64,000 bases of DNA from Rickettsiales bacterium (GTDB lineage Bacteria > Pseudomonadota > Alphaproteobacteria > Rs-D84). Each line of letters starts with the position of its first letter. Position 1 is the stretch's first letter. The notes under the pieces were generated by a model, which saw only the letters and a list, made by a program, of their open reading frames with translations, had not been told where the DNA came from and ran no database searches. The stretch spans positions 16,839 through 80,838 of the forward strand of contig JAISCX010000035.1 of NCBI GenBank assembly GCA_031265235.1. The letters run 5' to 3'. Made by a program: the position numbers and the translations under genes. Of the stretch, positions 19,201 through 48,104 are shown piece by piece.

Positions 19201-21345
19201 ATGAAAAGCAAAGTATTTCAGCTTGAATCAAATTACAAGCCGGCGGGCGATCAGCCGGGTGCCATACGCGAATTGTCCGACGGTCTGAAAGACGGCGTTC
19301 GCGACCAGGTTCTGCTTGGCGTCACGGGTTCCGGCAAGACATTCACAATGGCAAGCGTTATCGCGGAAATGGACCGGCCTGCGTTAATTATGGCGCCGAA
19401 CAAGATTCTGGCCGCGCAATTATATACTGAAATGAAGGGATTTTTTCCAAACAATCATGTCGAATATTTTGTGTCATATTACGACTATTACCAGCCAGAG
19501 GCTTACGTTCCCACAACCGACACCTATATAGACAAGGACGCCAGCATAAACGACCAGCTGGACAGAATGCGTCATTCTGCCACGCGCGCCATGCTGGAAG
19601 AGCGCGATGTTGTCGTTGTATCATCAGTGTCCAGCATCTACGGGCTTGGGTCGCCGGAAACATATTCGGAAATGAAGGCCGTGTTCGCGGCCGGCGACAA
19701 GATTGGCATCCGCGATGTTGTCGACGCATTGGTGCGATTGCAATACAAACGCAACGACATCGGATTCAACCGCGGCGAATTCCGCGTCCGCGGCGATTCA
19801 TTGGATGTATTTCCGTCGCACAGTCAGGACCGCGGCTGGCGATTTTCATTCTTTGGCGATGAAATAGAAGACATTTATGAATTTGATGTTTTAACGGGGC
19901 AGAAAACGCGAATGATGGACAGGGCCGCGGTATATCCGAATACCCACTATGCTACGCCGCAGCTGTCAGTGGTTCAGGCCATACACGAAATCCGCCGTGA
20001 ATTGTCGGACCGGTTGGATTATTTCAAATCGAATATGAAATATTTGGAAGAACAGCGCCTGCGCGAACGGACAAACTTTGATATGGAAATGATGGAGGCG
20101 ACGGGCGCATGCCGCGGAATTGAAAACTATTCCAGGTATTTGTCGGGGAGAGGCCCCGGCGAACCGCCGCCAACGCTGTTCGAATATCTGCCAAAGGACG
20201 CCATTTTATTCGTGGATGAAAGCCACGTTTCCGTCCCGCAAATCGGCGGCATGGCGCGGGGCGACCGCGCACGGAAAGAAACGCTGTCACAGTATGGATT
20301 CAGGTTGCCCAGCGCGTTGGACAATCGCCCGCTGACATTCGAAGAATGGGACGGGTTCCGCCCGCAGACCATATTTGTGTCCGCGACGCCTAACGATTGG
20401 GAAATAGAACAGGCGCATGGCGTCGTCGTAGAACAAGTGATACGTCCGACGGGTCTGCTGGATCCCGAATGTTTCGTTCGTCCGACAAAAAATCAGGTTG
20501 ACGATTTATTGCACGAGATCAAAAAAATAGTATGTCATCCCGGCGCGCGCGCTGGCGCGAACCCGGGATCCGGTCATGACATGTGTGTAGAAAATGTTTC
20601 AAACAAGAAAAATCAAGCTAGTTCCCGACCCCACCAGGTCCCGGATAATTTGCCTGCGGCAAATTTCCGGGATGACACCTGTGATACGGGGCGTGTTCTC
20701 ATCACCACGCTTACCAAAAAGATGGCGGAACAGCTGACGGATTATCTTGTCGAAAATGGCGTCCGCGCGCGATATCTGCATTCCGATATAGAAACTTTGG
20801 AACGTATCGAATTGCTGCGGTCCTTGCGACTTGGCGAATTTGACGTTCTGGTCGGAATCAACCTGCTGCGCGAAGGATTGGATATTCCGGAATGCGAACT
20901 GGTCGCGATCATGGATGCGGACAAGGAAGGTTTTCTGCGTTCGGCGCGGTCACTGATCCAGACGATCGGCCGCGCGGCGCGCAACGTGAACGGCCGCGTG
21001 ATTCTGTATGCCGATAGAATAACAAACAGTATGAAGATTGCGCTGGACGAGACCGCGCGTCGCCGGGAAAAACAAAGCGCGTATAACAAAAAGCATAAGA
21101 TAACGCCCGTGACCACGACCAAGGCCGTATTTGCCGAAGTGTCCGAGTTTAAGAAAAAAACAGATGCAAGGAAACAATTTGTGTATAACGACGACGGGCT
21201 TATGACTGCGGACGATATCCGTAAAGAAATTGCAAAGCAGACGCGCCAGATGAAAAAGCATGCGGAAAATCTGGAATTCGAACAAGCCGGGGCCGCGCGC
21301 GACGCAATCCGGCGATTAGAGGACGATCTGTTGTTGTTGGGATAA
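19201..21345 (+). CDS. uvrB: excinuclease ABC subunit B (carries an in-frame palindromic-element insertion)
   Basis: [22 protein letters not shown]...GVTGSGKTF. Helicase motifs and the UvrB YY motif [15 protein letters not shown] are present. A 48-aa insert ([15 protein letters not shown]...) precedes [13 protein letters not shown]. Confidence 0.95.
20533..20677. mobile_element. RPE-like palindromic element, copy A (in-frame within uvrB)
   Basis: Terminal inverted repeats tgtcatcccgg...ccgggatgaca with two internal hairpin modules (GC-stem; tcccggataattt-hp-aaatttccggga). 145 bp, roughly a multiple of 3. Confidence 0.7.
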
Positions 21346-21349
21346 CTTA

Positions 21350-21385
21350 TAGATAATAGATAATAGATAGTAGATACTAGATATC
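21350..21385. repeat. TAGATA-hexamer repeat block (half element)
   Basis: tagataatagataatagatagtagatactagatatc directly after the uvrB stop. Confidence 0.6.
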
Positions 21386-21412
21386 GCTCTGTCCGATAAT
21401 AGGGGTGCTGCA

Positions 21413-21652
21413 AATGTGATTTGTGATCTGTGATTTGAAAATCCGCCGCGGTCTAAATTCCCCTCCTTGGGAGGGGTGTCGGCAAAGCCGACGGGGTGGG
21501 TGCGCAAAATCTGGGCATGCTTGTTTTCGTCTCTCACAAAGTCCGAATACCCACCCCGGACTGCTAGGGCAGCATAGCTGCCAAGCAGGCCGCCCCTCCT
21601 CCGGAGGGGAATGTCGACCGCGGCGGATTTTCAAATCACAGATCACAAATCA
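21413..21652. repeat. 240-bp structured palindromic element with 38-nt terminal inverted repeats (aatgtgatttgtgatctgtgatttgaaaatccgccgcggtc)
   Basis: Left arm at 21413-21452 and right arm at 21615-21652 as an exact reverse complement. The interior carries five or more hairpins. ORFs on both strands start MICDLKIRRG, a mirror artefact. Confidence 0.7.
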
Positions 21653-21674
21653 CGCTTCACCAATCACACTTCAC

Positions 21675-21702
21675 AAAAAATCCGGCATTCGCCGGATTTT
21701 TT
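21675..21702. terminator. bidirectional rho-independent terminator
   Basis: aaaaaatccggcattcgccggatttttt between convergent genes. Confidence 0.6.
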
Positions 21703-23194
21703 ATTCCCCAAAATTATACCTGTTTTCTATATACAGTTCCGTTTTTGCGCCATTCGTATGTGAAAGCAGCCCGATGCCGTGCGGTATGCATTTATTGCTT
21801 TCGAATCTACACACGTTTGCCAATAAGTCGCCATTGTGCCGTATTACATACCAATCTGTTCCTGATGCCGCCGATGCCAGCACATTAAACTTATAACTGC
21901 TTGCTTTATTTTTCTCGATCTCTGCTTCTGAATATGTCGAGAATTTTTGCTGAACCCCGCCATTTGGTATTGTATAGTTGCCGGAATGAGACGAGTCTGC
22001 TGTCGCCGGTTCTATCTTATCCATGCAATCGCCAGCATTTGTTGCGGACGCGCAATAGTTTTTCCATTGGCTATAGGATGACAGAGTCACTTTGCCTTTG
22101 GAAATTATATCTTGTTCTGTTCTGTACGCATGGCCGTTGTCGTCCCAATACAAATATTCTTCGCATGCGGTCAGCTTTTTGCGTTCTTTGCCGATAGTGC
22201 TTTTATTGCTGGCAACGATTACGATTGATACCACGCTGGCGCCCGCGCCGACGCCCGCAGCAATTGTCGCACCCTTGTTCAGTCCGTTATTCAGACCGTC
22301 TTTTTCCTTGACTGCGTTTATGTTCCCGGCGCCGGACGCAATCGCGGACCCGGCGTTGGCCACGGCGCCGACAATCTGGAAAGTCTTTGCGGTTTTCAAA
22401 TTCTTTGCAGGTTTAGACACGTCGATGTTATTCGCGCATTTTGCTATTTCCATCATGGGATTGTTATCGCGTCCCTCTGTATGCGCCTGCATTGCTATTT
22501 CTTTGAATTCCTTGACTGCGCTGTTCCACTCGTTTGTTTTTGCATCGGCGAGATCATTTGCAACGCTGCCGATCACACTGACCGAAATCACGTTGGTGAT
22601 CAATCCGCCGGCCGCCGCGCCCATTCGCACCCAGTTCATGGTTTGGTTGAACCCGGCGTTGGAATCGTTCTTGTTGACCAGGTACGCGATCATCGCGTCG
22701 TTGGACACTTCCTTGCCTTCGCTGGTCTTGAATATGTCGTTTTTCAGATCGTCGCACGTTTTGGCCTTGATCGTTTTGCCGTCGGCGTCTTTGGAATCCT
22801 TATACGCGTCCGGGTTTTTGGATTTGTCAGCCGCGCAGTCTGCAGAGAAAGCCGATTCGAATTCTTTTTTCAGATCAGCGTCCGCCATCTTGGCCAGATC
22901 ATCCCCGTATTTCGCATCCGCGCGCGCGGACCTGGAATCCTTTATAATTCCGGTCGCGACAGCCGCGCCGTCAAGAATGACGCCGATAACGGACGCAAGC
23001 ATCGCGTTTGACAATTTTTTTTCTGCGCCGTATATGGAATCGAACAGCGCGTCGTGCTTGTCGCGCATGTTTTTGATCGCGCCCAGTTCGAAATCTGTCA
23101 TGTCGCCGTATGATTGCGCGTCGATCGGACGTGCCGCGAAAGCAGGTGTAATTAAAATTGCGGATAATAATCCGGAGATAATTTTTGTTTTCAT
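21701..23194 (-). CDS. hypothetical secreted Ala/Gly/Lys-rich protein (signal peptide MKTKIISGLLSAILITPAFAA)
   Basis: 497-aa ORF of low complexity with Cys pairs near the C-terminus. Confidence 0.6.
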   Translation of the reverse strand: MKTKIISGLLSAILITPAFAARPIDAQSYGDMTDFELGAIKNMRDKHDALFDSIYGAEKKLSNAMLASVIGVILDGAAVATGIIKDSRSARADAKYGDDLAKMADADLKKEFESAFSADCAADKSKNPDAYKDSKDADGKTIKAKTCDDLKNDIFKTSEGKEVSNDAMIAYLVNKNDSNAGFNQTMNWVRMGAAAGGLITNVISVSVIGSVANDLADAKTNEWNSAVKEFKEIAMQAHTEGRDNNPMMEIAKCANNIDVSKPAKNLKTAKTFQIVGAVANAGSAIASGAGNINAVKEKDGLNNGLNKGATIAAGVGAGASVVSIVIVASNKSTIGKERKKLTACEEYLYWDDNGHAYRTEQDIISKGKVTLSSYSQWKNYCASATNAGDCMDKIEPATADSSHSGNYTIPNGGVQQKFSTYSEAEIEKNKASSYKFNVLASAASGTDWYVIRHNGDLLANVCRFESNKCIPHGIGLLSHTNGAKTELYIENRYNFGE

Positions 23195-23271
23195 GTTATC
23201 CTTCCTTTACAGATATTATATCATGCTATCAATTTGAGTTCAACATATATTTGCTATCAAAATGCTGGCAA

Positions 23272-23520
23272 ATGAAAACGACCACCAAATCCATTTTCAA
23301 TCCGAAATACAAACGCCTGATTGACGATATGGTGGACGCGCGCAAGAAAAAGGGGTGGAGCCAGCGCGAGCTGGCCAAGCAGGCAGGCGTGTCGCATTGC
23401 TTTATCGGGCGCATGGAGACACGCGAACGTCGGCTGGATGTGATCGAGGCCGTCGAGATTATGAAGCTTTTGGGGTTGAGCAGGTCGATGATTCTTAAAA
23501 AAGTATCTGAATTGCTGTAA
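23272..23520 (+). CDS. XRE-family helix-turn-helix transcriptional regulator
   Basis: GWSQRELAKQAGVSHCFIGRMETRER is a typical HTH_XRE segment. Start at MKTTTKS. Confidence 0.7.
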   Translation: MKTTTKSIFNPKYKRLIDDMVDARKKKGWSQRELAKQAGVSHCFIGRMETRERRLDVIEAVEIMKLLGLSRSMILKKVSELL

Positions 23521-24092: not shown

Positions 24093-24722
24093 TTATTGCG
24101 GCAGCAACGATTGAACGGCAATCGCAAAGTCCGGCGCATTGGCCAGATAATTGCCGCTTACCAGAAAATCCGCGCCGGCGCGCCAGCATGCGGCCGCGGT
24201 ATCCGGGTTTATTCCGCCGTCCACGCTTATTTTGAATCCAAGGCCATACCTTTTGCGCGTGTTGTTCAATGCGAATATGCGGCCCAAAGCGGCGGCCAGG
24301 AATTCCTGGCCGCCCGCGCCGGGCACGACCGACATTACGAGTATCTCGTCAATCTCGCGCAGTATCGGCTTTAATATTTCGATCGGTGTTTCCGGATGCA
24401 GCGCGATTCCGGCGCGTTTGCCCCGCCGCTTGATTTCCGCGATCGCTTTCCGGACGCCCGCTGTTCCCGTTGAAAGTATTATCGTGTCCGCGCCTGCGTC
24501 CGCCGCCTGTCCCGCCCAGGATTCCGGGCTTTCAGTCATCAGATGCACATGCAGGTGCGCTTTCGTATGTTCGCGGATAAATTTCAATTCATCAATTCCG
24601 CCGGACACCGTGTCCACATAGAATCCGTCCATTATATCAACGTGAATCATAGAAACGCCGCCTGATTGAAAACGTGCGTATGTCGCGGGATCGCGCATGT
24701 TGAACGCAAGCGTGCTGGGCAT
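24093..24722 (-). CDS. rpe: ribulose-phosphate 3-epimerase (in the same reading frame as, and continuous with, upstream ftsA)
   Basis: Contains MIHVDIMDG, VMSVVPGAGGQEF and ISVDGGIN. Its ATG at 24722 overlaps an out-of-frame TAA (TAATG). Confidence 0.8.
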   Translation of the reverse strand: MPSTLAFNMRDPATYARFQSGGVSMIHVDIMDGFYVDTVSGGIDELKFIREHTKAHLHVHLMTESPESWAGQAADAGADTIILSTGTAGVRKAIAEIKRRGKRAGIALHPETPIEILKPILREIDEILVMSVVPGAGGQEFLAAALGRIFALNNTRKRYGLGFKISVDGGINPDTAAACWRAGADFLVSGNYLANAPDFAIAVQSLLPQ

Positions 24723-25880
24723 TATCGGGATAAATCTTTGTTTTTTCTTTTTCGGGAAAAGCTTTGAGAATGCGGATATGATTTTTGACAAGGCTTTTTC
24801 GCGGCGGTCGGATCGCGCCGCATATGTTCTGGCGAGCGGTTCCATCTGTTTCCAAATATATGATGCGTTCGCTTGGACCGCGGCTGCGGGACCGATGTTT
24901 TTGACGGGAATTCCGAACATGTTTGATACAAAATCGTCTATGCCCGTGATGTTCGCGCCGCCGCCGGACAGATATATTCGGACGGGCGCGTATTTTTGAA
25001 TCGCATTTTTTGTGGCATCGAACGCCGCCTGCAAGATTTCGGAAAGCACCGGAATCGCGATATCGTTCACGTCGCCTTTGGAAAAATCATGTTTGGAACT
25101 GGCCGGCGTAAACCTGTCCATATCGCCGCCGGATAGGGATATGTTCTCGCGTTTTATCTTTTCCGCAGCGTTGAAGGACAAATCAAGCCCGCTGGCGACG
25201 GAGTCGGTTATCGATGACTGCGCGTTCGGTATTTTTTTATAAAAAACCGGCCCCCTGCTTGTCCAAACCGACACGGACGTATGGCTTGCCCCAAGGTCCA
25301 GTAATACAGCCGGCTCTTTTTTTGGGCGCATTGTGCATGCGATTAAAAACGCCGGATCAAAAAAATCGCGCCCCATGATGTGCGCGGCGCGCGCGGCGCC
25401 GCGCACATCATTTATCCCGTCGGCATCATAGGCGATCGCGCCAAATGCCGCGGAAACATGCGTATCCGAAAGACCAACCGGCGTCGTGATATTTTGCAGT
25501 TCAAGCAGATCATAGCGCAGCGGAATTATATGCATCGGCGCGAAATAGGGCGATATTTCGGGAATTTCCGAAATCAAAGCATCAATATCGGCGTCCGATA
25601 TTTTATGTTCTTTGATCCAGTCTTTCTTTCTGACAAGCAAGATATATTCCAATGCGCCGAAATTTCCGGTGACATATGCGGAATCAAAGCGCGCGCCGAT
25701 GTCTGATTCTATCGCGTCGACGACAGTCCGGACCCCGGCGCCCGTATCGAACGATTCGCATGCGCGGATGGCGGATTTTGCAATGCGTCCGGACACTATG
25801 CGGAACCCTATCCCGCGAACCGCGGTTGTGCCGATGTCAAGACATAGAAAAGAGTTGTCGAATAAATTCATAATCAGCAA
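24723..25880 (-). CDS. ftsA: cell division protein FtsA (no in-frame stop; reads through into rpe as a 595-aa fusion ORF)
   Basis: Actin-fold motifs LCLDIGTTAVRG, LLDLGASHTSVSVW and IYLSGGGANITG. The C-terminal amphipathic segment is ALSKIISAFSKLFPKKKK. The gene lies downstream of ftsQ as in the dcw cluster. Confidence 0.75.
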
Positions 25881-26688: not shown

Positions 26689-27585
26689 TCAGAATGTCAT
26701 TTGTTTCACGGTGTGTTCTATCGAAAACTTTTTCGCGGCGTCCAAATTTTTCTTTTCGATAGCCGCGCGTTCGGAACCTGACATCGCCAAAACGCGAACC
26801 AGCGCGTGCCGAATGTCATCCGCGGTCGGGTTAACGGGCGGCCGTATGTTCGCACGAATCCCAAATTCATTGTCCGGCCATATTGTCGGCCGCCCTTGCG
26901 CCACCGCCGCCATCAGCAAGTCACGGTCGGCAGGCCCGATCGACATAACCGCATAGGTTGAACGCATAACGGTCGGCAAGTCCGCATCGTTTTTTATATA
27001 TATTGTTCTGAATTCCTGTCCGGACGCCTTTGTTTGCGACATTATTTTTCGTGCGTGCCGAACGCCCGAAAATCCATAGATGGCGATTACCAGATCTGGG
27101 TCGTCTATCCGTTTCATCGCGTCCAGCAAGGCGTTCAAACTTGCGCCCATCTGACTTATGACGACGATCATCTTTTGGTGCGGCGCGATATTGTATTCGG
27201 ACAAAAACCGCGTGATGCGCAGCACCGCTATGGAATTCGGCGAGAATAGGGCCAGGTCCAGCCCGAAATCAATCGGTTTTGACGACGCTTTCAGCTTCAT
27301 TCTGGCGGCCAGCTTGGCGGCCGGCATATCTATGGCATGTATGGCGTGCGGCCCGGATTTTAAAAATTCGCGGAATTTTCGCGACGGTATCAGGAATTCG
27401 CGCCCGAATATCTTGATTTTATAAATTTCGACATGCGGCACCCGCAGACGCCGCACAATGCCGTTTGACACAGGCGACGCGATTGCCGCGGAAAATCCGG
27501 ATTTTTGCAAACTGGTCGCCAATGTGGCCAATCCGCGCGAAACGTTGGACGTTACAAACAGAAAAGATTTGGGATTTGCTGTCAT
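26689..27585 (-). CDS. GT-B fold glycosyltransferase-like protein (possibly LpxB-like; uncertain)
   Basis: C-terminal half resembles GT1/LpxB C-domains (VVISQMGASLNALLDAMKRI ... AAVAQGRPTIWP). Start is uncertain. Confidence 0.4.
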   Translation of the reverse strand: MTANPKSFLFVTSNVSRGLATLATSLQKSGFSAAIASPVSNGIVRRLRVPHVEIYKIKIFGREFLIPSRKFREFLKSGPHAIHAIDMPAAKLAARMKLKASSKPIDFGLDLALFSPNSIAVLRITRFLSEYNIAPHQKMIVVISQMGASLNALLDAMKRIDDPDLVIAIYGFSGVRHARKIMSQTKASGQEFRTIYIKNDADLPTVMRSTYAVMSIGPADRDLLMAAVAQGRPTIWPDNEFGIRANIRPPVNPTADDIRHALVRVLAMSGSERAAIEKKNLDAAKKFSIEHTVKQMTF

Positions 27586-27659
27586 TTTAACTTTATAGAG
27601 CAATCGGGAGTATATTTTATTCTTATACTCTGCGCGCAAAGCGCGGCGTTAATCTTTTT

Positions 27660-28433: not shown

Positions 28434-28456
28434 CGCGCAAAGCGAGGTTAAATGTT

Positions 28457-28579
28457 CAAAGAGCAAAGAGCAAAGAACAAAGAGCAATAATGCCCTTGTC
28501 TTTATCCTTGCTTTACAACATAGGTTATAAAGATGAGAAAATATTATTTGTTCTTTGCTCTTTGCTCTTTACTCTTTGC
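28457..28579. repeat. heptamer-repeat palindrome: (CAAAGAG)4 ... (CTCTTTG)4 arms separated by ~50 nt
   Basis: Left arm at 28457-28491 and right arm at 28543-28579. The right arm overlaps the start and signal peptide of the 28533 gene. Confidence 0.7.
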
Positions 28580-29855
28580 TGCTGGCTGCGTACAACAGAT
28601 GCAAAACCGGGGACAGCCGATGTATGATGATGTTACGGTTGTCGAAAATCTGGTTATTGACGAACGGTCCGTGCCAATATTCCCGCGCAAAGCCGCGCTT
28701 ACGACCGATACCGCGCGTCGTTTTGCGCTGGATCTGCCGAAACGCTGCACGGTTGATTGGGACAATCAGCGCGTTTTATCCGTTCTGCCGGAAGAACGCG
28801 TGGAAATGACGCAATTGGACAAAGGCGACCCGCTGCCCGAATTTGCCGTTGAAAACTATTCCTTTGAAAAACTGACCGTCCGGGACGCGCTGGAAAAACT
28901 GCTTGCCGGAACGAATATCCGCGTGATAGAGGACGAGAATATCCCCGATAAAATCACCGGCACGATCAAATCCGGGGAACTGGCTGATGCCGTGGACCTG
29001 CTGGTCAGAATGGGCAAGGCATATTATTCTTATGACGACGCGACGCGCGATCTGCATATAGGGCGCCGGGCGCAATTTCTGATGAAAATGCCGAAAGATC
29101 AAATGATAATAATGGCGCTGATCGATGCGATGCGCGGAATGGGGATTGGAAACCTGATGGTCAACTGGGAAGACAAGACGCTTGCATTCGAAGGAAATTA
29201 CCAGACCGAACGCGAAGCGCGTCAGATAATCACCGATCTTGGCGCCCAAAAATATCTGATCGCATGGGATATTGACATATACCGCGTATATCCGCGGACG
29301 GATAATCCGATTATCTGGATGAACATGCTGCCTGCGCTGGGCGAAAAGAATATAAAAATGTCCATTCCGGGCGTCGTCGGGCGCGCGCTGGTCGTGGGAC
29401 CCGAAATAAATACCAAAACATTGCAGGAGTTTCTGGGCCAGCAGGCAAACGTGGTTCTTATTTCCCAGGGGACTTTCTCGATCCCGAACGGGTGGCAGTC
29501 GCGGTTTGACATCGGCCAATGTTCGCGCGAAGAACGTTTGGAAACAGACCTGATTGTCGGCGCGATCGGCAAATACGGCGACTATGCGGGGATGAAGAAA
29601 TTGGATACAAAGCTGGCGCTGCGAACGCATGCCGGGGAAATCGCGACATACCAGGTGCCCAGCACCATCGGCGACAATTATGTAATTATCGGGATTCCAA
29701 CGCATTCGTTTGTGCAAGGCACGGAAACATTGATATCGCCCTTTGCCGAGTTGGTCGTGTTCATGTCCCCCCGCATTATTTCAATAACAAATGGCGCCGC
29801 GGTGCCGGCGGCGGCGCTGTCGGGTCAGAACCTCCGGGACTATTTGGATGAATAA
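28533..29855 (+). CDS. outer-membrane lipoprotein with secretin-like C-terminus (putative)
   Basis: Lipobox LLFAAGC. The C-terminal VPSTIGDNYVIIGIPTHSF...AELVVFMSPRII resembles the secretin signature (VP.LGDIP..G.LF...ELLIFITPRI). Confidence 0.45.
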   Translation: MRKYYLFFALCSLLFAAGCVQQMQNRGQPMYDDVTVVENLVIDERSVPIFPRKAALTTDTARRFALDLPKRCTVDWDNQRVLSVLPEERVEMTQLDKGDPLPEFAVENYSFEKLTVRDALEKLLAGTNIRVIEDENIPDKITGTIKSGELADAVDLLVRMGKAYYSYDDATRDLHIGRRAQFLMKMPKDQMIIMALIDAMRGMGIGNLMVNWEDKTLAFEGNYQTEREARQIITDLGAQKYLIAWDIDIYRVYPRTDNPIIWMNMLPALGEKNIKMSIPGVVGRALVVGPEINTKTLQEFLGQQANVVLISQGTFSIPNGWQSRFDIGQCSREERLETDLIVGAIGKYGDYAGMKKLDTKLALRTHAGEIATYQVPSTIGDNYVIIGIPTHSFVQGTETLISPFAELVVFMSPRIISITNGAAVPAAALSGQNLRDYLDE

Positions 29856-31171: not shown

Positions 31172-31175
31172 AATT

Positions 31176-31294
31176 TAGATACTAGATACTGGATACTAGA
31201 TATTAGATATTAGTTTTGAACGCACTGAGAATTTATTGCGCCATCCGAACCAATATCTAGAATCTAATATCTAGAATCTAGTATCTAGTATCTA
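31176..31294. repeat. TAGATA-hexamer palindromic element (full, two inverted arms around 40-nt core)
   Basis: tagatactagatactggatactagatattagatattag ... ctaatatctagaatctaatatctagaatctagtatctagtatcta. Confidence 0.7.
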
Positions 31295-31306
31295 AAAAGG
31301 TAAATA

Positions 31307-38429: not shown

Positions 38430-41222
38430 GTGTCGGCGAATAACATTTTTTGCGCAAGCAACCCGGCAAAGATTGTCGACGCGCTGTGGCAGGTTCTGAC
38501 AAATAAAATCTCGGCGCGTGAAAGCGCGACGGATGATTTTTCCAACGATATAATTTTTTTGCCCAGCCGCCGCGCCGTCGGAACCGTTGAAAGGATGATT
38601 GCCGAAAAGACGGGCGCGGCCGTATTGCTGCCGCGGCTTGTCGCGCTTGGGGAAGAAGCCGAAGATGACGGGCCGCAAGAAGATAAATCTGAAAAAGGCG
38701 GCCCGGGCGCGCCGGTATCGAATCTTGAACGCGCGGCTGTCCTGGCAAAAATGCTGACCGCGCACATGGACGGCGGAATAGCCGGGACACTGCCGGTTGC
38801 GAAAGATCTGGTTCGGACGATGGATTATCTGGAAAACGAAAGGAACGCGGACCGGAAAACAGAAATAAACTGGTCTGAATTGGTTTGCGAGAAATACGCC
38901 GTGCATTTCCGGGACAAGGCGCGGTTCTTGGATTTGGCATGCAGGGCTTTGCCCCTTGTATTTCCAGGAAGAGAGACTGTCGCGCAAAAACGCAACAAGG
39001 ACGTTCGCGGCTGGATCGAATATCTGAATAAGCACAAATCACGAATAATTGTATGCGGATCAACCGGCTCGGTGCCCGCGACTGCGGACCTGATGGAATA
39101 TATCGCGGGGCGCGCTAATGGATATATTATTCTTCCTGGAAAGATAAACGAGATCCGAGATACGTTGTGCGAGATCCGAGATACAAATCCGTATTATTCT
39201 GAAATGAAGTTTCTTGAACGGATTTGTGTCATGCCAACTGATGTTCAAACGATTGATGTTGGCGAATCCGCCATAGGTTTTTTCAATTCAGCTTTTGATA
39301 ATAATACAAATCACAGATCACAAATAACAAATCACGACGCGCGTTTCACGCGCGTCGACTGTGCCCGCGAAGCGGAAGAAATGGAGACTGTCGCCGAAAT
39401 CGCAAAGGACGCCGCATCAAGCGGCAAGACCGTTCTGATCGTATCCCCGGACAAGGCCGCGGCGCAGCGGCTGCGGGAATCATTGATTATGCGATCCGTG
39501 GAATTTGACTTTTCCATCGGGATGTCCGGCGGATCGACAAAGCTGGGAAGACTTGTTTTGAACATGCTGGATGAGGGAAAAGGGAAAAGGGATGGGGGAA
39601 AAGGATATGTGCGGGACATTTGCGCTGAATACAAAAAAACGGGCGATTTGTTTGGGGCCGTCCAGAATATGGTTGAAGATTATGTGTCATCCCGGGCGCC
39701 GCTTTGCGGCGACCCGGTATCTTGTCAGGACCAGGGACTAGAAGATGTTCAAAATAACGAAGATTCCGATTATCTCCAGAATGACAAGATCCCGGGTTCC
39801 GCTTCGCGGCCCCGGGATGACACAAATCGCCACTCACAAATCACCCATCACGATATAACATCCGAAGAATCTCTGGCGGTTTGGGACGCCGTTCGCGAAG
39901 TTTCGGATATCATAAAAAATAACAGGCTTGAACTGTCAAAGCCCGATTTGCGCGGACTGGTCGCGGAAGCGTTAGATACGGTGAATATCAGGCCGCCGGG
40001 AAAGGAAGGCTGTCCCGTCTGCATTCTTGGCACAATCGAATCGCGAATGCAGACGGCGGACGTCGTGATTTTAACCGGGCTTAATGAAAACATGTTTCCG
40101 GCGACGGGTTATGAAAATCCCTGGCTGCCGCGGCGCGTATGCGACGCGCTGGGCATGCCGCCGCCCGAACGAAAAGTGTCTTTGATGGCGATGGATTTTA
40201 TTACGCTTTCCTGCGGGGGGGATGTTTATTGGACGCGGTCAAAGACATCGGGCGGATATGACACGACGGAATCGCGATTTCTGTCGCGGGTAAGTGTGAA
40301 AGAAAACAAGGGCAAGGAAATTCTTATTGATGACGGTTCCGAATGGCTTGCGCGGGTTCGCGCCCGCGACAGTGTGCCGCTGCGTCCTTTGGATTATTTA
40401 GCGCCAAAACCAAACGCCGATTGGTCGGATGTTTTTGTGACGGAATTGGAACTGCTGGTTCATAATCCGTATGCTTTTTATGCCAGACATATATTGCGCC
40501 TGAGACCATCGCCGGATCCGTGGGATGACGCATCCGCGATTGATTTCGGAAATATCGTGCACGAGGCGATAAAGGAATTGACGATATCCGAAAAGGACAC
40601 GCAATGTCGCGACATTATCGAAATACTTAAACAGAAAGCGAAAGAAAAGCTGGAACCCGGCAGCATTCTGTTTCATTTCTGGGATGCGCGCTTTAAAGAA
40701 ATGGCGCCGTTGGTAAAAGAATTTATAGACGAGGCTAAAAGCGACGACGTTGTGTGGTCTGCCGCGGAAGACGCGGCCACGGGCGTTGTTGAAATCGCGG
40801 GCCGAAATGTTCGCGCCAAGGCGGATTGCGTTTATGTAAAGAGGGAAGAGGGAAGAGGGAAGAGGGAAGAAATCGGTTGTGCCATAGATATAAAAACCGG
40901 AAGGGTGCCTTCGAATTCTCAATTAGATAACGGCATGATGCCGCAGCTGCCGTTAGAGGCATATATGCTGAAAAATAAAAAGTTTACCGGGCAAAACGTT
41001 TTGCCCGCGCGCGTCGTTATGAAGTTCCTGCAACTTTCCCGCGGAAAATGCGGCGTGATTGAATATGCGGGCGAAGACTTGGATAATAAAATCGGCGCGG
41101 CGATCGCCAAGACGACCGAATTGTTCAATATGTATTCCGCGGGCGGCAAGGCGTATGAGTATCGCGAAACAGGGGACGATAAATACAAGGCATACGACGA
41201 TCTGGCGCGGGCGTGGGATTAG
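38430..41222 (+). CDS. addB: double-strand break repair nuclease AddB-like (alphaproteobacterial type) riddled with in-frame repeat insertions
   Basis: IIFLPSRRAV...LLPRLVALG resembles the AddB N-terminus and TVLIVSPDKAAAQRLRESL is AddB-like. The C-terminal block AKADCVYV...AIDIKTGR is PD-(D/E)XK-like. Inserts include EGKGKRDGGKG, KREEGRGKREE and an RPE-like copy. Confidence 0.5.
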   Translation: MSANNIFCASNPAKIVDALWQVLTNKISARESATDDFSNDIIFLPSRRAVGTVERMIAEKTGAAVLLPRLVALGEEAEDDGPQEDKSEKGGPGAPVSNLERAAVLAKMLTAHMDGGIAGTLPVAKDLVRTMDYLENERNADRKTEINWSELVCEKYAVHFRDKARFLDLACRALPLVFPGRETVAQKRNKDVRGWIEYLNKHKSRIIVCGSTGSVPATADLMEYIAGRANGYIILPGKINEIRDTLCEIRDTNPYYSEMKFLERICVMPTDVQTIDVGESAIGFFNSAFDNNTNHRSQITNHDARFTRVDCAREAEEMETVAEIAKDAASSGKTVLIVSPDKAAAQRLRESLIMRSVEFDFSIGMSGGSTKLGRLVLNMLDEGKGKRDGGKGYVRDICAEYKKTGDLFGAVQNMVEDYVSSRAPLCGDPVSCQDQGLEDVQNNEDSDYLQNDKIPGSASRPRDDTNRHSQITHHDITSEESLAVWDAVREVSDIIKNNRLELSKPDLRGLVAEALDTVNIRPPGKEGCPVCILGTIESRMQTADVVILTGLNENMFPATGYENPWLPRRVCDALGMPPPERKVSLMAMDFITLSCGGDVYWTRSKTSGGYDTTESRFLSRVSVKENKGKEILIDDGSEWLARVRARDSVPLRPLDYLAPKPNADWSDVFVTELELLVHNPYAFYARHILRLRPSPDPWDDASAIDFGNIVHEAIKELTISEKDTQCRDIIEILKQKAKEKLEPGSILFHFWDARFKEMAPLVKEFIDEAKSDDVVWSAAEDAATGVVEIAGRNVRAKADCVYVKREEGRGKREEIGCAIDIKTGRVPSNSQLDNGMMPQLPLEAYMLKNKKFTGQNVLPARVVMKFLQLSRGKCGVIEYAGEDLDNKIGAAIAKTTELFNMYSAGGKAYEYRETGDDKYKAYDDLARAWD
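39686..39821. mobile_element. RPE-like palindromic element, copy B (in-frame within addB)
   Basis: tgtcatcccgggcgccgctttgcggcgacccgg...cccgggttccgcttcgcggccccgggatgaca, the same architecture as copies A and C. Confidence 0.7.
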
Positions 41223-42571: not shown

Positions 42572-44152
42572 TTATTCTTTCCTTATCGGATATTCGCCTT
42601 GTTCCAGTTTTTCGCGGACAACATGGTGCTTTATTTTTTGCGTTGATGTCAGCGGCAGATCATCCGTCGTCATTGCGAAATGTGTCACCCATTTATAGCT
42701 GGCCACCCTTTTGTTCTTTTCCGCGACGGCCGCGGCAAGCTTTGCCAATGTCATGCCTTCGTCCACTGAAAACACGCCGTATGCCACGGTCTTGTTCTTG
42801 ACGGCATGTTCAAATACCGCGATGTTTTTAACGCCGGGAATTTCCAGAAACAATGCCTCTAATTCGTCCGGATAGACGTTTTTTCCGGAATCCAGCACGA
42901 TCACCTGCTTTTTGCGTCCGTGGAAATGCAATTCCCCGTTCGTGTCCATGCTGACCAGATCGCCGGTGTTAAAGAATCCGCGTTCGTCAAAAATTTCGGA
43001 ATTCACAATCGGATTGTTCAGGTATCCGCCAAACACCTGATGCCCGCGCAGCCACAGCACGCCGATGCCTTCGCTGTTTTTATCGCGCAGCTCGCAATCG
43101 TTGTTCGTGATGGGGCCCCCGAATGCAAACGGGAAACGGTGCTTGCCCGGCTTTGATATGCAGATAGGCCCGACTGTTTCCGTCAATCCGTATCCTTGGA
43201 TAAAGGGCAGACCCAGACGTTCATAAAAGGTCTCTACTTCCGGTTTGGTTGCTGCGCCGCCGGCAATAAGCAGACTGACGCGGCCGCCGAATACGGCAAG
43301 CACGGGATCCTGGATTTTTTTGACCAGAAATCCAAATCCGATTTTCTTTAAAACAGGTCCGAATTTCAAGACAAAGCTTGCCAGCCACCACAGCTTTTTC
43401 TTTTTAAAGTTTTCAATGATCTTGTTGCGGAATACTTCCCAAAGTCGCGGCACGGCCGGAATGACATGCGGCCGGTATTGCTTAAAGTCGTCGAGAATCC
43501 CCGCGGGATTGACGGCCGCCTGCAACAGGACGCTGGAACGGTAATGGATGGACGCCAAAATCTCTACGGCAAAACCGTAAACATGATACATCGGCAGAAA
43601 ACCATAGATTATATATCCCCTGTCGAACCAGGCACTCATGTCTTCCAGCGAATTTGCGCATTCTATCAGGTTGAAATGGGTCAGCGGCACGATTTTCGGA
43701 ACACCCGTGGAACCCGATGTGAAAGACAAGGTCGCTATATCCGGTGATTCAACCGCAGCCGGCTGCAAATCCTGGTTGATGCCGGCGTCTTCGGATTCTA
43801 TGTCATAGAACGCAAAGTTTTTCGTCTTGAAAAAGAAAGACTTTTCCGCACAGACGAGGCGGCAATTCGCAAGGCTTGCCATATTGTCGTATTCAAACGG
43901 CGTCAGGTTCGTGTCCAGCAATAACGCCTGGGCCCCCAGATACCATATTGCGAAAGCGGTCAGCGGAAATTCCGGGATATTGTGGGACAGGATTCCGATC
44001 ACGTCGTCCTTTTTGACGCCCATATTGGCCAGCGTTGCCGCCCGCTTTTTGACGTTTTCATTAAATTTGGAATATGTTATCCCTTCGCGGGTAAGGAAAA
44101 GCATATCCGGCGCGTCTGCGACGGCGCTTTCCAGAAATTGATACATGTTCAT
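42572..44152 (-). CDS. AMP-dependent synthetase/ligase (acyl-CoA synthetase family)
   Basis: LSFTSGSTGVPKIV is the AMP-binding motif, with YGLTETVG and GDLVSMDTNGELHFHGRKK. AAAGGAA RBS before MNMYQF. Confidence 0.8.
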   Translation of the reverse strand: MNMYQFLESAVADAPDMLFLTREGITYSKFNENVKKRAATLANMGVKKDDVIGILSHNIPEFPLTAFAIWYLGAQALLLDTNLTPFEYDNMASLANCRLVCAEKSFFFKTKNFAFYDIESEDAGINQDLQPAAVESPDIATLSFTSGSTGVPKIVPLTHFNLIECANSLEDMSAWFDRGYIIYGFLPMYHVYGFAVEILASIHYRSSVLLQAAVNPAGILDDFKQYRPHVIPAVPRLWEVFRNKIIENFKKKKLWWLASFVLKFGPVLKKIGFGFLVKKIQDPVLAVFGGRVSLLIAGGAATKPEVETFYERLGLPFIQGYGLTETVGPICISKPGKHRFPFAFGGPITNNDCELRDKNSEGIGVLWLRGHQVFGGYLNNPIVNSEIFDERGFFNTGDLVSMDTNGELHFHGRKKQVIVLDSGKNVYPDELEALFLEIPGVKNIAVFEHAVKNKTVAYGVFSVDEGMTLAKLAAAVAEKNKRVASYKWVTHFAMTTDDLPLTSTQKIKHHVVREKLEQGEYPIRKE

Positions 44153-44199
44153 AATAAAAATTCCTTTGAGTTTATATTGGACAAAGGGTATTATAGATG

Positions 44200-44236
44200 A
44201 GGAATTAGCAATTAGCAATTAACAATTAACAATTTA
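44200..44236. repeat. heptamer tandem repeat (TTAGCAA)2(TTAACAA)2 in xthA promoter region
   Basis: attagcaattagcaattaacaattaacaattt read from sequence. Confidence 0.6.
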
Positions 44237-44247
44237 GGAATGTTTAA

Positions 44248-45018
44248 ATGAAAATATTGTCAATAAACATCAATTCAATCCGCGCGCATGCGGAAAGCTT
44301 TATAAAGGTTTTGACCGCGCGCGCGCCGGACGTGGTTCTGGTTCAGGAAACAAAAGTCGAAGATCACGCGTTTCCGCATGTCTTGTTTGAACATTTGGGA
44401 TACAATGTTAAGACTTTCGGCCAAAAATCATGGAACGGCGTCGCGGTTTTTTCAAAGGCATCGATAGAAGATGTCGTCAAAGGCCTGTCCGGTCATTCTG
44501 ATCCGGCCGCACGGATGCTGGAATGCGTTATCGATGGGCGCATTCGTATAATAAACGTATATATGCCGAACGGAGAGGCAACCGATTCCCCGAAATTTCC
44601 GCCGAAAATAGAATGGATGAATCATTTCACCCGGCATATCGAACCGCTGTTGCATTCGGAAGAGCCGGTAATAATAGGCGGCGATTTTAATGTCGCAATA
44701 GAAGACCGGGACGTCTGGAATCCGACTGCATACATTGGATCCAGCATTTCTGCGCCCGCCGCGCGCGACATTATGCGGAAATGGCTGGATGCCGGATGGA
44801 TTGACTGTTATCGCAAATATCATCCGACGCAGGAAAAACCATGGACATGGATCGGATATCGCGGCGGATCGCTGGGCAAAGACAACGGTCTGCGGCTGGA
44901 TTATTTCCTGGCCAACAATGCGGCGGAAAAATTGATAAAGGGCTGTGATATAGACATGATGCCCCGGACAGAGGATAAGCCGACGGATCATTGCGGATTG
45001 GTTCTTGAAATCGCATAG
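44248..45018 (+). CDS. xthA: exodeoxyribonuclease III
   Basis: MKILSININSIRA...VVLVQETKV, colinear with E. coli XthA. The C-terminal PTDHCGLVLEI matches. Confidence 0.9.
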   Translation: MKILSININSIRAHAESFIKVLTARAPDVVLVQETKVEDHAFPHVLFEHLGYNVKTFGQKSWNGVAVFSKASIEDVVKGLSGHSDPAARMLECVIDGRIRIINVYMPNGEATDSPKFPPKIEWMNHFTRHIEPLLHSEEPVIIGGDFNVAIEDRDVWNPTAYIGSSISAPAARDIMRKWLDAGWIDCYRKYHPTQEKPWTWIGYRGGSLGKDNGLRLDYFLANNAAEKLIKGCDIDMMPRTEDKPTDHCGLVLEIA

Positions 45019-45059
45019 CGGTTTCAAGAAAATGACAAATAATTTAAAAAGGCAGTGAA

Positions 45060-45782
45060 ATGAAAATAGTTGCGATTGGCGGCGGTCAAAACGGCAGAAA
45101 GAAAACCATGCCGGACGGAACGGTAAAGCAATACCCTTTTGACAATGTGCCTATAAATAAAAAGATTATTGAATTATCAGGTAAGAAAAATCCTAATTTG
45201 CTGTTGCTTGGGACTGCTGGTCGTGATGTGGTGTCATTCACGGATTACTTGGCAGACCATTTCAAGTCTCTTGGTGCAAATGTTTCGGAATTGAAACTGG
45301 CGGAAAACAACCCGACAGAGGCGGAAATGAGAAAAATTTTAGATAAAACAGATATCGTTTATGCAGGCGGCGGAGACACTTTGATTCTGATGAATCGTTG
45401 GCGTGAAACAGGTTTTGACAGACTGTTGAAAGAATACGGCGACCAGGGGGTTGTTCTTTCGGGATTGTCCGCCGGTGGGATATGTTGGTTTGACTATTAT
45501 GACAACGATGAATATATTGACGGAGATATGTCAAAACTGGATTTTCTGCCGGGACTTGGGTTTATCAAAGGATTTGCAGTTCCGCATTATGACGATAAAA
45601 CGCCGGAAGAAAAGAAATTGTTTGATAACTTGCTTGTTAAGAAAGGTGTCGTTGGATATGGAATTGATAATAATGCCGCGATAATTTTTGATAATGGAAA
45701 AATGTCCATCATGTCCAGCCAGCCAAATGTCGGAATACATTATTTGAATACGCCTAAACAAAACATGAAAGAACGTGGGTAA
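45060..45782 (+). CDS. peptidase S51 family (dipeptidase E-like)
   Basis: YAGGGDTLILMNRWRETG...LSGLSAGGICWFD aligns with PepE GGGNTF...GWSAGAN. Confidence 0.7.
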   Translation: MKIVAIGGGQNGRKKTMPDGTVKQYPFDNVPINKKIIELSGKKNPNLLLLGTAGRDVVSFTDYLADHFKSLGANVSELKLAENNPTEAEMRKILDKTDIVYAGGGDTLILMNRWRETGFDRLLKEYGDQGVVLSGLSAGGICWFDYYDNDEYIDGDMSKLDFLPGLGFIKGFAVPHYDDKTPEEKKLFDNLLVKKGVVGYGIDNNAAIIFDNGKMSIMSSQPNVGIHYLNTPKQNMKERG

Positions 45783-45889
45783 AATTTGAGATTTCAGACA
45801 TATTCTGGACATAGAAATTGCACAATAAAAAAACAATCACCCGCAGACCTATAAAATCTGCGGGTTTGATTTTTTGCACAAAGCTGTTT

Positions 45890-46315
45890 TTATTTGGCGT
45901 TTTTTTCTTCATACAGTTTTTGAAAATCAACCGGTTGCATCGCGAATGGCGGGAATCCGCTTTCCGCCGTCAGACGCACGACCAGTGCGCGCACGCTTGG
46001 GAATATCAATGTCGGCACTTCGATCAGCAGCGTCCGTTTCAATTCCTCTTCGTTTTCGGTCTTTTCCATCTGGACCAGTCCGGAATAAGTGCATTCGATC
46101 ATGAATATGGATTTGTCGCCCTGTTCCAGCTTGCTGTGCAGTTTCGTGATCAAATCAACCATATACAGATTGTTTTCGGTGCCCTTAATCTGGATATCGA
46201 TATTGATTTCCATCTTGGCTTGGCCGTTTTCCTGTTTAAAGAACAATTCCGGAACGTTCGGGCTTTCAAAAGAAATGTCCTTTAAAAACTGGGATATTAT
46301 ATTGAATTGCGGCAT
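45890..46315 (-). CDS. secB: protein-export chaperone SecB
   Basis: 141 aa colinear with SecB, beginning MPQFNIISQFLKDISFESPNVPELF. Confidence 0.85.
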   Translation of the reverse strand: MPQFNIISQFLKDISFESPNVPELFFKQENGQAKMEINIDIQIKGTENNLYMVDLITKLHSKLEQGDKSIFMIECTYSGLVQMEKTENEEELKRTLLIEVPTLIFPSVRALVVRLTAESGFPPFAMQPVDFQKLYEEKNAK

Positions 46316-46412
46316 TGATTGCTCCTTTGTTTGCGTGCCATTTTATGATAATATAGCATAAACGAATAATTTTTCAAGCCCGGGGCCTGAAAAATAATTA
46401 ATGGAATCTGAA

Positions 46413-47495
46413 ATGAAAAAATCTTTGATATTTGCTATTTGCTCTCTTCTCTTTGTTTATGGTTGCCGCGACTTGACGCAGCAAAGCCCGTCCGTCACGA
46501 CGGACGACGGAATAAAGCCGCGGAATTTGACGCGCGCGTCGTTTTCCGATTTGCCGGGGTGGCGCGCGGATGACGTGCGTTATGCGCTGAAAGCTTTCCG
46601 CAATACGTGCAAAGCAAAAATAAGCTATTCCGGCAAGGTTGTCCCGGACCGGTATCTGCTGGAAGAAAAGTGCCGGGTTTTGCCGAATGAATCCGCGGAC
46701 AATGCCACCGTCCGCGCATGGTTTGAATCGCATTTCCAGCCTTATAAAATAGCGGACGAATCCGGCAAGACCAAGGGAACGTTTACGGGGTATTATTCCC
46801 CTGTCGTACAGGCATGCCGCGCGCAGACTGCGAAGTGCAGCGTGCCGATTATGGATACGCCCGTCGACGGCCGCCAGTATAAAGGCGTCGATAGCAAAAC
46901 ATTGGTCAAGGGCAGAATCGGCCGCGTGATTTTCTGGATAGATCCGATTGACTTGCAGGATATGGGATCGGCAACGCTGATACTTGATGACGGGACCAAG
47001 GCAAAGGTAAACGTCGCGTCCACGAACGATCTGCCGTTCAACGGGATCGGGGGCCAGCTGAAAAATCGCGGAATCCGTCCCGCGGACGGATACGGCATGA
47101 AGTCGGTCCGCGCACACCTGAAACAAAATCGGACGCTTGCCAATGAACTGATAGACAATAATCCGCGGTACGTATATTACCGCCAGTCGGATAATTTCGA
47201 TGTGATCGGAAACATGGGCGTGGGCTTGTCAAAAATACGCTCCATCGCCATGGATACCAGCATTTATTCATTGGGGCTGCCGGTTTTTGTGGATACAAAC
47301 CTGTCAGATTCCAGCAAGTTTCAGCGTCTTATGATCGCCCAGGATACCGGTGGCGCAATCAAGGGCTGGGTGCGCGCAGACATTTATTTCGGCGTGGGGG
47401 ACGACGCGTTTCAATACGCCCAGGGACAGTATTCAAGCGGCGAAGCATACATACTTATGCCGAAACAGTATGAATACGTAAAGCCAAGCTTTTAA
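46413..47495 (+). CDS. mltA: membrane-bound lytic murein transglycosylase A
   Basis: Lipobox LLFVYGC. TFTGYYSP is the MltA motif, and the C-terminal 3D domain is AQDTGGAIKGWVRADIYFGVGDDA. Confidence 0.8.
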   Translation: MKKSLIFAICSLLFVYGCRDLTQQSPSVTTDDGIKPRNLTRASFSDLPGWRADDVRYALKAFRNTCKAKISYSGKVVPDRYLLEEKCRVLPNESADNATVRAWFESHFQPYKIADESGKTKGTFTGYYSPVVQACRAQTAKCSVPIMDTPVDGRQYKGVDSKTLVKGRIGRVIFWIDPIDLQDMGSATLILDDGTKAKVNVASTNDLPFNGIGGQLKNRGIRPADGYGMKSVRAHLKQNRTLANELIDNNPRYVYYRQSDNFDVIGNMGVGLSKIRSIAMDTSIYSLGLPVFVDTNLSDSSKFQRLMIAQDTGGAIKGWVRADIYFGVGDDAFQYAQGQYSSGEAYILMPKQYEYVKPSF

Positions 47496-47606
47496 AGCAA
47501 ATTATCATTGCGTGCGGACAGAATTCGCGAAGCAATTTTTTAAATTCGGGAATTAAGGGACTCTCTTGAATCCGCGAAATTGCTTTGTCGCCTGCGGCCC
47601 ATCGCA

Positions 47607-48104
47607 ATGACAGCCATAATTATGAACAAAGCACAGGATTTTAACAAACGCAAAGGCCGTCCGCAGACGCTGGGCGGGGCCTTTGGCGATCTTTTGCGAA
47701 AGTTTGGACGACATTCGTCCGATGCGGATTTGGTGGCCAGATGGGTTGATATCATGGGGCCGGAAATTGCAGGAATCGCGGATTTGGTTTCGATATCAAA
47801 AATTAAAAGCAATGTGTCATCCCGGGCGCGGCAGAGCCGCGACCCGGGACCTGGTCATAGCCAGGGAATAGAAAATGTTTCCGATAGAAGAAACATTAAT
47901 AATCCCAATTCCCACCAGATCCCGGATAATTTTTCGCATTCTGCGAAAAATTTCCGGGATGACACCCTTGGCCGCGTAATGACCGTGCGGGCAAAGAATC
48001 CGGCTGCGGCGCTGGCCCTTTCCTATAAGGTTGCCGATATCCGCGCGGCCGCAAACAAGTATTTCGGATACGACGCCGTCGTGCGCGTGATCGTGAAAAA
48101 ATGA
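47607..48104 (+). CDS. DUF721 (DciA-like) family protein with in-frame palindromic-element insertion (start uncertain)
   Basis: C-terminal YFGYDAVVRVIVKK and N-terminal ...LVARWVDIMGPEIAGIADLVSI fit DUF721. The middle ~50 aa are encoded by RPE-like copy C. Confidence 0.5.
   Translation: MTAIIMNKAQDFNKRKGRPQTLGGAFGDLLRKFGRHSSDADLVARWVDIMGPEIAGIADLVSISKIKSNVSSRARQSRDPGPGHSQGIENVSDRRNINNPNSHQIPDNFSHSAKNFRDDTLGRVMTVRAKNPAAALALSYKVADIRAAANKYFGYDAVVRVIVKK
47816..47964. mobile_element. RPE-like palindromic element, copy C (in-frame within DUF721 gene)
   Basis: tgtcatcccgggcgcggcagagccgcgacccggga...cccggataatttttcgcattctgcgaaaaatttccgggatgaca. Confidence 0.7.

Follow-up and report, generated by a model that had tools for sequence, protein, structure and literature searches.

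The question that this locus raises is what kind of DNA has entered three protein-coding genes of one bacterium without breaking their reading frames, and by what route it arrived. The window, by which the whole analyzed stretch of 64,000 nucleotides from contig JAISCX010000035.1 is meant, belongs to an uncultured alphaproteobacterium of 48.8% GC, whose UvrB is identical to a protein (P0001) from an NCBI metagenome-assembled genome (MAG) labelled 'Rickettsiales bacterium'. Three related palindromic segments lie in it, one each in uvrB, an addB-type nuclease gene and dciA (a DUF721 gene), and an earlier reading of the letters alone (the sequence-only reading) had compared them with the Rickettsia palindromic elements (RPEs). 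The elements are head-to-head dimers of TGTC-tagged repetitive extragenic palindromic (REP) hairpins that carry extended hairpins, and are not classical MITEs (miniature transposable elements with inverted repeats).

All three elements lie on the + strand, in frame within their hosts, and are bounded by TGTCATCCCGG at the left and CCGGGATGACA at the right. The first (20533-20677, 145 bp, with TGTC...GACA bounds) occupies uvrB and is composed of a left unit at approximately 20533-20571, a spacer at 20572-20636 and a right unit at 20637-20677. The second (39685-39822, 138 bp) lies in the addB-type gene, with a left unit at 39685-39723 and a right unit at 39786-39822, both of which have GC-rich inner hairpins; the third (47815-47964, 150 bp) lies in dciA and joins a left unit with a GC-rich inner hairpin (47815-47853) to a right unit with an AT-rich one (47915-47964). 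The 11-mer TGTCATCCCGG and its complement occur exactly six times in the window and nine times when up to one mismatch is allowed, as against 1.14 expected, a count reached by 0 of 100 shuffles. When the three copies were made into a profile, it recovered no others convincingly in the window (E 1e-40 to 1e-48 for the three, values that are self-inclusive, as the profile recovers the copies from which it was built). The copies align over their full length, including the central spacer, with pairwise nucleotide identities of 65-72% over aligned positions, 57-68% when gaps are counted, and only 54-58% within the spacer. There is weak evidence for a possible solo REP remnant at 11974-11996 on the - strand (TGTCATTCCGG...), which has a one-mismatch match to the 11-mer and an nhmmer E of 6.1; it is apparently intergenic if the downstream gene starts at about 12014-12020 instead of at the open reading frame (ORF) start at 11962.

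TGTC forms the outer end of all six units, with the tags outermost in every copy. Seven to eight pairs, opening with A-T and T-A, make up the outer stem ATCCCGG(G)/(C)CCGGGAT, the left unit of the dciA copy having a terminal A-C mismatch (it ends in ..GGGAC). Between the halves of this stem lie 17-30 nt that fold as an inner hairpin of 6-11 bp, and the two units are separated by partly self-complementary spacers of ~57-65 bp. The tails read CCG, CTT and CTG in the left units and CTG, TTG and CTG in the right units. Inner hairpins are of two kinds, GC-rich and AT-rich, and are combined as homo- or heterodimers, within the window as well as among the further copies at loci L124-L126 that are described below. 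RNA folding of the elements against shuffled controls gives z-scores of -4.3 (uvrB), -9.1 (addB) and -8.9 (dciA). Between the copies in addB and dciA, the left inner hairpin differs by one compensatory change (C-G to G-C), and double changes are seen at 7 of 33 consensus pairs when seven family members are aligned. At gathering thresholds, Rfam returned only tRNAs; no known RNA family, riboswitch or intron coincides with the elements. None of the three junctions, whose flanks are GTA|..|CCT, GTG|..|CAA and ATG|..|CCC, has a direct repeat of 2 nt or more, and thus none has a target-site duplication.

On comparison with homologs, the segments in the three host proteins are inserted DNA that relatives lack. 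The uvrB gene (19201-21345, + strand) encodes 714 aa identical to P0001, with Pfam matches to UvrB_inter, Helicase_C and UvrB, and the insert corresponds to residues 446-495. The closest insert-free UvrB (P0004, 90% identical) is 52 aa shorter than that of the window, which at the DNA level has 156 nt beyond the P0004 gene at the insert site; in an alignment of 13 UvrBs the extra segment is missing from P0004, P0005, P0006, P0007, P0018 and P0076. When mapped onto a solved structure, a 54-residue stretch of the window protein stands in place of a 5-residue loop (442-446) of Bacillus caldotenax UvrB, located where the C-terminal helicase domain begins, between a helix and a strand. The AlphaFold2 model of UvrB (mean pLDDT 67.7) assigns residues 446-495 pLDDT values of 23-27 and no secondary structure, with a confident flanking helix (432-443) and strand (498-503), and the insert is thus predicted to be a disordered loop.

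The other two hosts show the same pattern. The addB-type PD-(D/E)XK nuclease gene (38430-41222, + strand) encodes 930 aa identical to P0121, and its 48-aa segment is absent from nine of nine AddB relatives that are 50-63% identical. The dciA gene (47622-48104, + strand, its start taken from the 160-aa library representative P0241) matches PF05258, and the insert divides the Pfam DciA domain at profile position 44/45. Library homologs of DciA with lengths of 109-119 aa give two matching stretches, one on each side of the insert, and removing the insert in silico restores one contiguous Pfam match (6-88 of 89, 45.2 bits) where the intact protein matches over 45-88 with 37.3 bits. Two further candidate DciA homologs, P0243 and P0259, were rejected, as they are giant cadherin-repeat proteins whose 12-14 matching stretches represent repeat or low-complexity noise.

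Each copy lies on the + strand of a + strand ORF with no stop codon inside, and exactly one frame per copy is stop-free on the coding strand. The peptides encoded by the elements are 46-50 aa in length: 48 aa in uvrB, SSRAPLCGDPVSCQDQGLEDVQNNEDSDYLQNDKIPGSASRPRDD in addB and SSRARQSRDPGPGHSQGIENVSDRRNINNPNSHQIPDNFSHSAKNFRDD in dciA. The addB and dciA copies are entered at codon offset 1 and read SSR..., and the uvrB copy is entered at offset 0 (CHPG...), an extra C after CCCGG moving it into the shared frame (...ENVS...PDN...FRDD). The added totals are multiples of three even with the 145-bp core in uvrB, where a 1-nt indel and extra flanking bases make up the length. Such frame-compatible totals are what selection on a translated insert predicts, and the preserved frame argues against removal of the inserts at the RNA or protein level; from this preservation we infer that they are transcribed and translated as extra loops. 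The family is also found in the same frame (YVSSQGAANAESPGSGRDKGIENIQ...PDNFARATQNFRDDT) in a 483-aa Lnt-like library protein (P0268). The encoded peptides are not conserved, as the right hairpin reads differently between copies (e.g. PDNFSHSAKNF), and an alignment of the three insert peptides searched against a collection of 5.8 billion proteins gave four word candidates and no matches, an uninformative result.

Much of the sequence-only reading is borne out by these data. The three copies lie where it had placed them, with three of the six ends moved by one base (39685-39822, 47815-47964), and the shared terminal inverted repeats and two-hairpin interior are as it described. The in-frame position in uvrB, addB and a DUF721 gene holds on the + strand without stops, the hosts being confirmed by Pfam, and the UvrB insert does lie just before the protein stretch that it had named. 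It had proposed that the hosts gain an extra peptide loop, and relatives without the segment are indeed found in all three families (the 52-aa shorter UvrB, nine of nine AddBs and the short DciAs), which is also the outcome of aligning insert-lacking relatives as it had suggested. The folding that it had proposed as a check exceeds shuffles in all three copies, and the failure of the copies to align with one another, which it had named as a refutation, was not seen. Its likening of the elements to RPEs is supported by their ends, which match the REP superfamily that holds RPE-6 and RPE-4 of R. conorii.

By their ends, the window copies belong to this superfamily of CGTC/TGTC-tagged REPs, which was described by Di Nocera, De Gregorio & Rocco (2013, BMC Genomics 14:522; PMC3733652). 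A CGTC REP unit consists of a CGTC tag (variants TGTC, which is frequent, and CCTC) that is unpaired within the unit, an 8-9 bp stem starting with A-T pairs, a 4-5 nt loop and a 3-nt tail, CCA; the units occur chiefly as head-to-head dimers with the tags outside and spacers of 20-100 bp, mostly in Alphaproteobacteria (PMC3733652). Neisseria dRS3 is CGTC-1, as is R. conorii RPE-6, and RPE-4 is CGTC-4. Intragenic units are notable in uvrABC/uvrD, recBCD, polA and dnaE genes, the published intragenic dimers typically encode 20-30 aa, and no dedicated transposase was found for CGTC REPs (PMC3733652). The supplement of the same study shows that R. conorii CGTC-1 dimers encode SFLRKQES...DSRFRGND, that uvrB, uvrC and dnaE of R. 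conorii carry such units, and that a CGTC-1 REP is also present in an apolipoprotein N-acyltransferase. The window elements resemble CGTC-1 head-to-head dimers in the (C/T)GTC tag, the AT-starting outer stem, the outward tags, the spacer with complementary ends, the mainly alphaproteobacterial distribution and the presence of copies, in frame, within uvrB, recB/addB-type genes and further genes of replication and repair. In contrast to the 20-30 aa of the published dimers, the window elements encode 46-50 aa.

In further comparing the elements to RPEs, which were reportedly the subject of work by Ogata et al. in 2000 and 2002, both are palindromes of ~100-150 bp that lie in frame in housekeeping genes, always present a stop-free frame and add extra surface peptides. 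The RPE-6 peptides VIPAKAGI, SFLRKQES and DSRFRGND back-translate to GTCATTCC(T/C)GCGAAAGC(A/G)GGAATC, an indirect comparison made through peptides, and the resulting layout is the same as that of the window, TGTCATCCCGG..CCGGGATC. The window's (V)SSR...FRDD(T) is in the same frame relative to the tag as R. conorii SFLRKQES...DSRFRGND, its AT-rich counterpart. The differences are that the window host is not Rickettsia and has 48.8% GC, and that the window stem is ATCCCGG as against ATTCC(T/C)GC, the latter inferred from the published peptides. The phenomenon of translated palindromic REPs within genes is real but already described, and the window copies add a modest structural variation.

The same ends are widespread in other genomes. 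When one genome per species was scanned for TGTCATCCCGG-N105-135-CCGGGATGACA, the end pattern turned up at no fewer than 120 loci, where our own calculation expects about one by chance. Among the matches listed, to which the following counts also refer, most are from Caulobacterales and Hyphomicrobiales (Phenylobacterium, Caulobacter, Maricaulis, Hyphomicrobium, Xanthobacteraceae, Methylobacterium), with a few MAGs that bear labels such as Coxiellaceae and Omnitrophota. In all these matches the interior shows no relationship to the window copies and the layout is constant: TGTC-ATCCCGG-[hairpin]-CCGGGAY-CCA, a variable and often self-complementary centre, then the mirror image of the first unit; monomers and arrays occur as well. 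The left unit is present in 125 of 130 elements, of which 21 have short canonical loops (6-9 nt, a stem-closing pair plus a GAAA-type loop, e.g. CGAAAG) and most have an extended inner hairpin of 14-35 nt, with a (C/T)CCA tail in 89 of the 125. Judged from these units, the extended-hairpin form is a common undescribed variant in Caulobacterales and Hyphomicrobiales genomes. In a full-text literature search, the terminal sequence was met only as part of primers, in papers on other subjects.

Most of these outside elements are intergenic. Open frames run through 15 of the 130, and the ten longest, when inspected, were mostly Arg/Ala/Gly-rich ORFs of antisense type from genomes of 64-73% GC; where a real gene is recognizable (L023, L064), the element lies upstream of it. 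Judged by these elements, in-frame insertion is not a general habit of the superfamily. Members of the window's own family were found in a 53% GC organism as four apparently intergenic copies (L124-L126, 51-69 bits). Two further occurrences of the ends were observed: an uncultured alphaproteobacterial MAG (L062, 4781-5648) has a tandem array of four near-identical 143-bp dimers at spacings of 251, 251 and 223 bp, and thirteen predicted viral or proviral contig stretches from IMG/VR (L132-L144) have the TGTCATCCCGG...CCGGGATGACA dimer pattern.

As to the route of arrival, each element is a head-to-head pair of REP hairpins, a non-autonomous doublet like a REPIN (REP doublet forming a hairpin). 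It would be copied via hairpin intermediates in single-stranded form, by an HUH tyrosine transposase (REP-associated tyrosine transposase, RAYT) that is present as a single copy elsewhere in the genome. Copies in essential genes would be those that survived because their orientation and frame offered no stop codon, the length that they added was divisible by three (in uvrB through the 1-nt indel and the extra flanking bases) and their site was a tolerant surface loop. The element would then be transcribed and translated as a disordered loop of ~48-52 aa, which in DciA would divide the domain. We consider this account as a whole, comprising CGTC-superfamily doublets, copying by a RAYT, filtering by frame and loop, translation and old age, to be probable with good confidence.

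REPIN-RAYT systems, reportedly treated by Bertels & Rainey in 2011 and 2022, are alike in having two inverted REPs that form one long hairpin, in being non-autonomous and in their vertical, slow dynamics. The Neisseria dRS3-type REPIN has the unit (C)GTC-ATTCCCGCG..CGCGGGAAT, close to the TGTC-ATCCCGG..CCGGGAT of the window, and its master sequence, ATTCCCGCGCAGGCGGGAATC, fits what we take to be the dRS3 pattern (ATTCCC-N8-GGGAAT). The population of this master sequence tracks a Group 2 RAYT (bioRxiv 10.1101/2021.07.10.451892). Since a REPIN that goes with a Group 2 RAYT fits dRS3/CGTC-1, a RAYT-type mobiliser is likely here by analogy. The window departs from REPIN-RAYT systems in having no RAYT gene, in copies that are far more diverged (65-72%), and in that three of three copies are intragenic whereas REPINs are typically extragenic.

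Several points weigh against this account. Pfam scans of ~59 candidate ORFs found no transposase, RAYT included, in the 64-kb window, and a regular expression for RAYT-like ORFs (HUH ... Y..NP) found none in the window or in 140 fetched loci, which is a weak negative. The count in the 64-kb window is only three copies and one doubtful remnant, and the level of identity between them is unlike that of an active REPIN population around a master sequence. The window units differ from published CGTC-1 units in their 17-30 nt inner hairpin, where a 4-5 nt loop is typical, and in the tails CCG, CTT and CTG instead of CCA.

The insertions look old and decaying when the copies and their counterparts in relatives are compared. 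The sequence-only reading had put the copies at 75-85% identity and their spread as fairly recent, and neither statement holds: the measured 65-72%, together with REP inserts at the same sites in distant relatives, excludes a recent burst. At the uvrB site P0002 has another palindrome (GCGCAGAGCGCAGA...TCGCTCTGCGCTCTGCGC), P0003 has TGTCCCCCCACCGC...GCGGTGGGGGGACA with internal TGTC-type REP and G-rich hairpins, starting at the codon of the window element, and P0008, P0009, P0020 and P0052 have inserts too. At the dciA site, the distant organism of L127 (with an MltA of only 61% identity) carries one unit alone, TGTCATCCCGGACGTCGCGAAGCGACGATCCGGGACCCGGTCAG, and after it TCGGGACGCACC, a sequence similar to the right terminus of the window element, and L128 has a composite insert with a GTAG-REP-like hairpin and a TGTC-tagged hairpin. 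These different palindromes at the same sites, the nature of the elements as dimers of REP hairpins, and the at least 120 mostly intergenic loci elsewhere had all escaped the sequence-only reading.

Possible explanations of same-site occupancy are that a few tolerant loops were struck repeatedly, that an ancient insertion was remodelled, or that insertion is targeted. A stronger proposal is that the UvrB and DciA linkers are long-lived 'landing pads' for varied REP palindromes, which would imply targeting or selective retention (co-option) beyond mere tolerance; the pads may extend over a deep clade of uncultured alphaproteobacteria, with repeated or continuous occupation, and their occupants may include a TGTC dimer, a TGTC monomer, a GTAG-REP-like/TGTC composite and other palindromic inserts. 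We hold this proposal to be doubtful.

One alternative to the account as a whole is co-option, in which REPs are aimed at or kept in repair and replication genes, either as an mRNA hairpin that tunes expression or as a linker that alters activity; a link to mutator phenotypes was a speculation of Di Nocera et al. (PMC3733652). It would explain why three of three window copies lie in DNA-metabolism genes, which by our own estimate (gyrB, UDG, uvrB, addB, an exonuclease, dciA, ruvC, recA and dut) make up ~17% of the window, but this gene category was picked after seeing the data. The same gene bias was reported independently (PMC3733652), REP ends are intact across distant lineages, and differing REP palindromes occupy the same uvrB and dciA sites in relatives of ~60-88% protein identity; however, permissive-loop filtering with local re-insertion or gene conversion explains that occupancy without function. 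Co-option is judged unlikely, as the peptides show no conservation, disorder is predicted for the insert and close relatives do without it in UvrB.

A second alternative takes the elements for classical MITEs, i.e. deletion derivatives of an insertion sequence (IS) with a DDE transposase, moved by cut-and-paste through terminal inverted repeats of 11-14 bp. The perfect terminal repeats (TGTCATCCCGG/CCGGGATGACA), the size of 138-150 bp and the strong folding of the whole element would all suit this, and prokaryotic MITEs such as Coxiella QMITE1 and intragenic ERIC (PMC10969869) are likewise small non-autonomous palindromes able to extend ORFs. Their ends, however, are IS-like repeats, often with target-site duplications, where the window elements have self-contained hairpin ends and a duplication at none of three copies. 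The apparent terminal repeats are formed by the outer half of each of two autonomous hairpin units, a unit that is also found alone (L127 dciA and the listed loci), and conservation of the ends across orders and even phyla, with unrelated interiors, is better explained by a recognition hairpin than by an IS in decay. The 64-kb window contains no IS with such ends, and a MITE origin is quite improbable. That the segments are ordinary lineage-specific loops (indels or low-complexity expansions) and not mobile DNA has a negligible likelihood, for although all three sites are variable linkers at which the lengths of relatives also differ, it is refuted by the nucleotide-level alignment of 140-150 nt shared by three unrelated genes, with identical 11-nt ends, a common architecture and an alignable spacer, by the absence of the segment from the nearest insert-free UvrB (P0004), and by the recurrence of the family in the four apparently intergenic L124-L126 copies and the Lnt-like P0268.

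The window and its relatives hold other palindromic sequences, some of them beside the same genes. Just downstream of the uvrB stop, a composite palindrome of ~238 bp (21416-21653) has 61-nt arms that are 92% complementary, start with TGTGATTTGTGATCTGTGATTTG (reverse complement CAAATCACAGATCACAAATCAC) and contain internal G-rich hairpins; it represents a second, different palindromic family. The motif of its arms, a heptamer repeat of CAAATCAC type, occurs twice in frame in addB (76% identical over 37 nt), at 39301-39337, encoding NHRSQITNHD, and at 39817-39853, directly right of the REP dimer, encoding NRHSQITHHD. In the AddB relative P0125, SPQRPATGD(R/K)QERGT appears twice, at two variable sites (alignment columns ~240-256 and 451-470), which suggests that another repeat family is translated within addB in this clade. 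Compared with the solved MnmE that scores highest (PDB 9hip), the mnmE product has 15 extra aa in frame, SRVSPPYGGETRFSE, at 56910-56955 (- strand); the palindrome GGGGAGTCGCGTCTCCCCCCC-CTAC-GGGGGTGAGACGCGATTCTCC encodes them and represents another translated palindromic insert family.

Heptamer arrays of TAGATAC/TAGATAT are present at 31174-31296, 53168-53285 and 21347-21385, the two intergenic ones being inverted (arms of 24-40 nt, 85-95% complementary) and the third a direct run after the uvrB stop codon. Two ORFs of divergent orientation are separated by inverted CAAAGAG heptamer arrays (28457-28587), which extend into the ends of both and have arms of at most 31 nt with 90-100% complementarity. 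A perfect 19-bp hairpin at 50902-50943 (TGTTCATTGTAGGGGCGCA/TGCGCCCCTACAATGAACA) follows the 900-aa ORF at 48184-50886 and looks like a GTAG-tagged REP or a terminator; the GTAGGGGCGCG hairpin in the L128 dciA insert resembles it. A single ORF of 595 aa (24093-25880, - strand) joins FtsA to ribulose-phosphate 3-epimerase, a fusion conserved without gaps and with 80% identity in a relative (L121, 4591-6369). A perfect 16-bp hairpin within this ORF (25375-25411) was considered as an insertion and rejected, as it is native sequence common to the relative. The ORF at 26689-27639, at the expected place of ddl beside ftsQ, has only a faint glycosyltransferase match, and no Pfam match even at E 0.01 was obtained for the ORFs at 48184-50886 (900 aa), 21701-23194 (497 aa), 28533-29855 (440 aa) and 6713-7840 (375 aa).

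The finding reveals no new kind of element or mechanism. It appears to provide, in a bacterium other than Rickettsia, a clear case that can be checked of selfish palindromic DNA translated inside essential genes, and the case of DciA, the replication-helicase loader, is the first of which we are aware, the literature not having been searched specifically for one. The unexplained published bias towards repair and replication genes gains three data points, along with the same-site occupancy in relatives, and the RPE phenomenon is connected with the much broader CGTC/TGTC REP superfamily.

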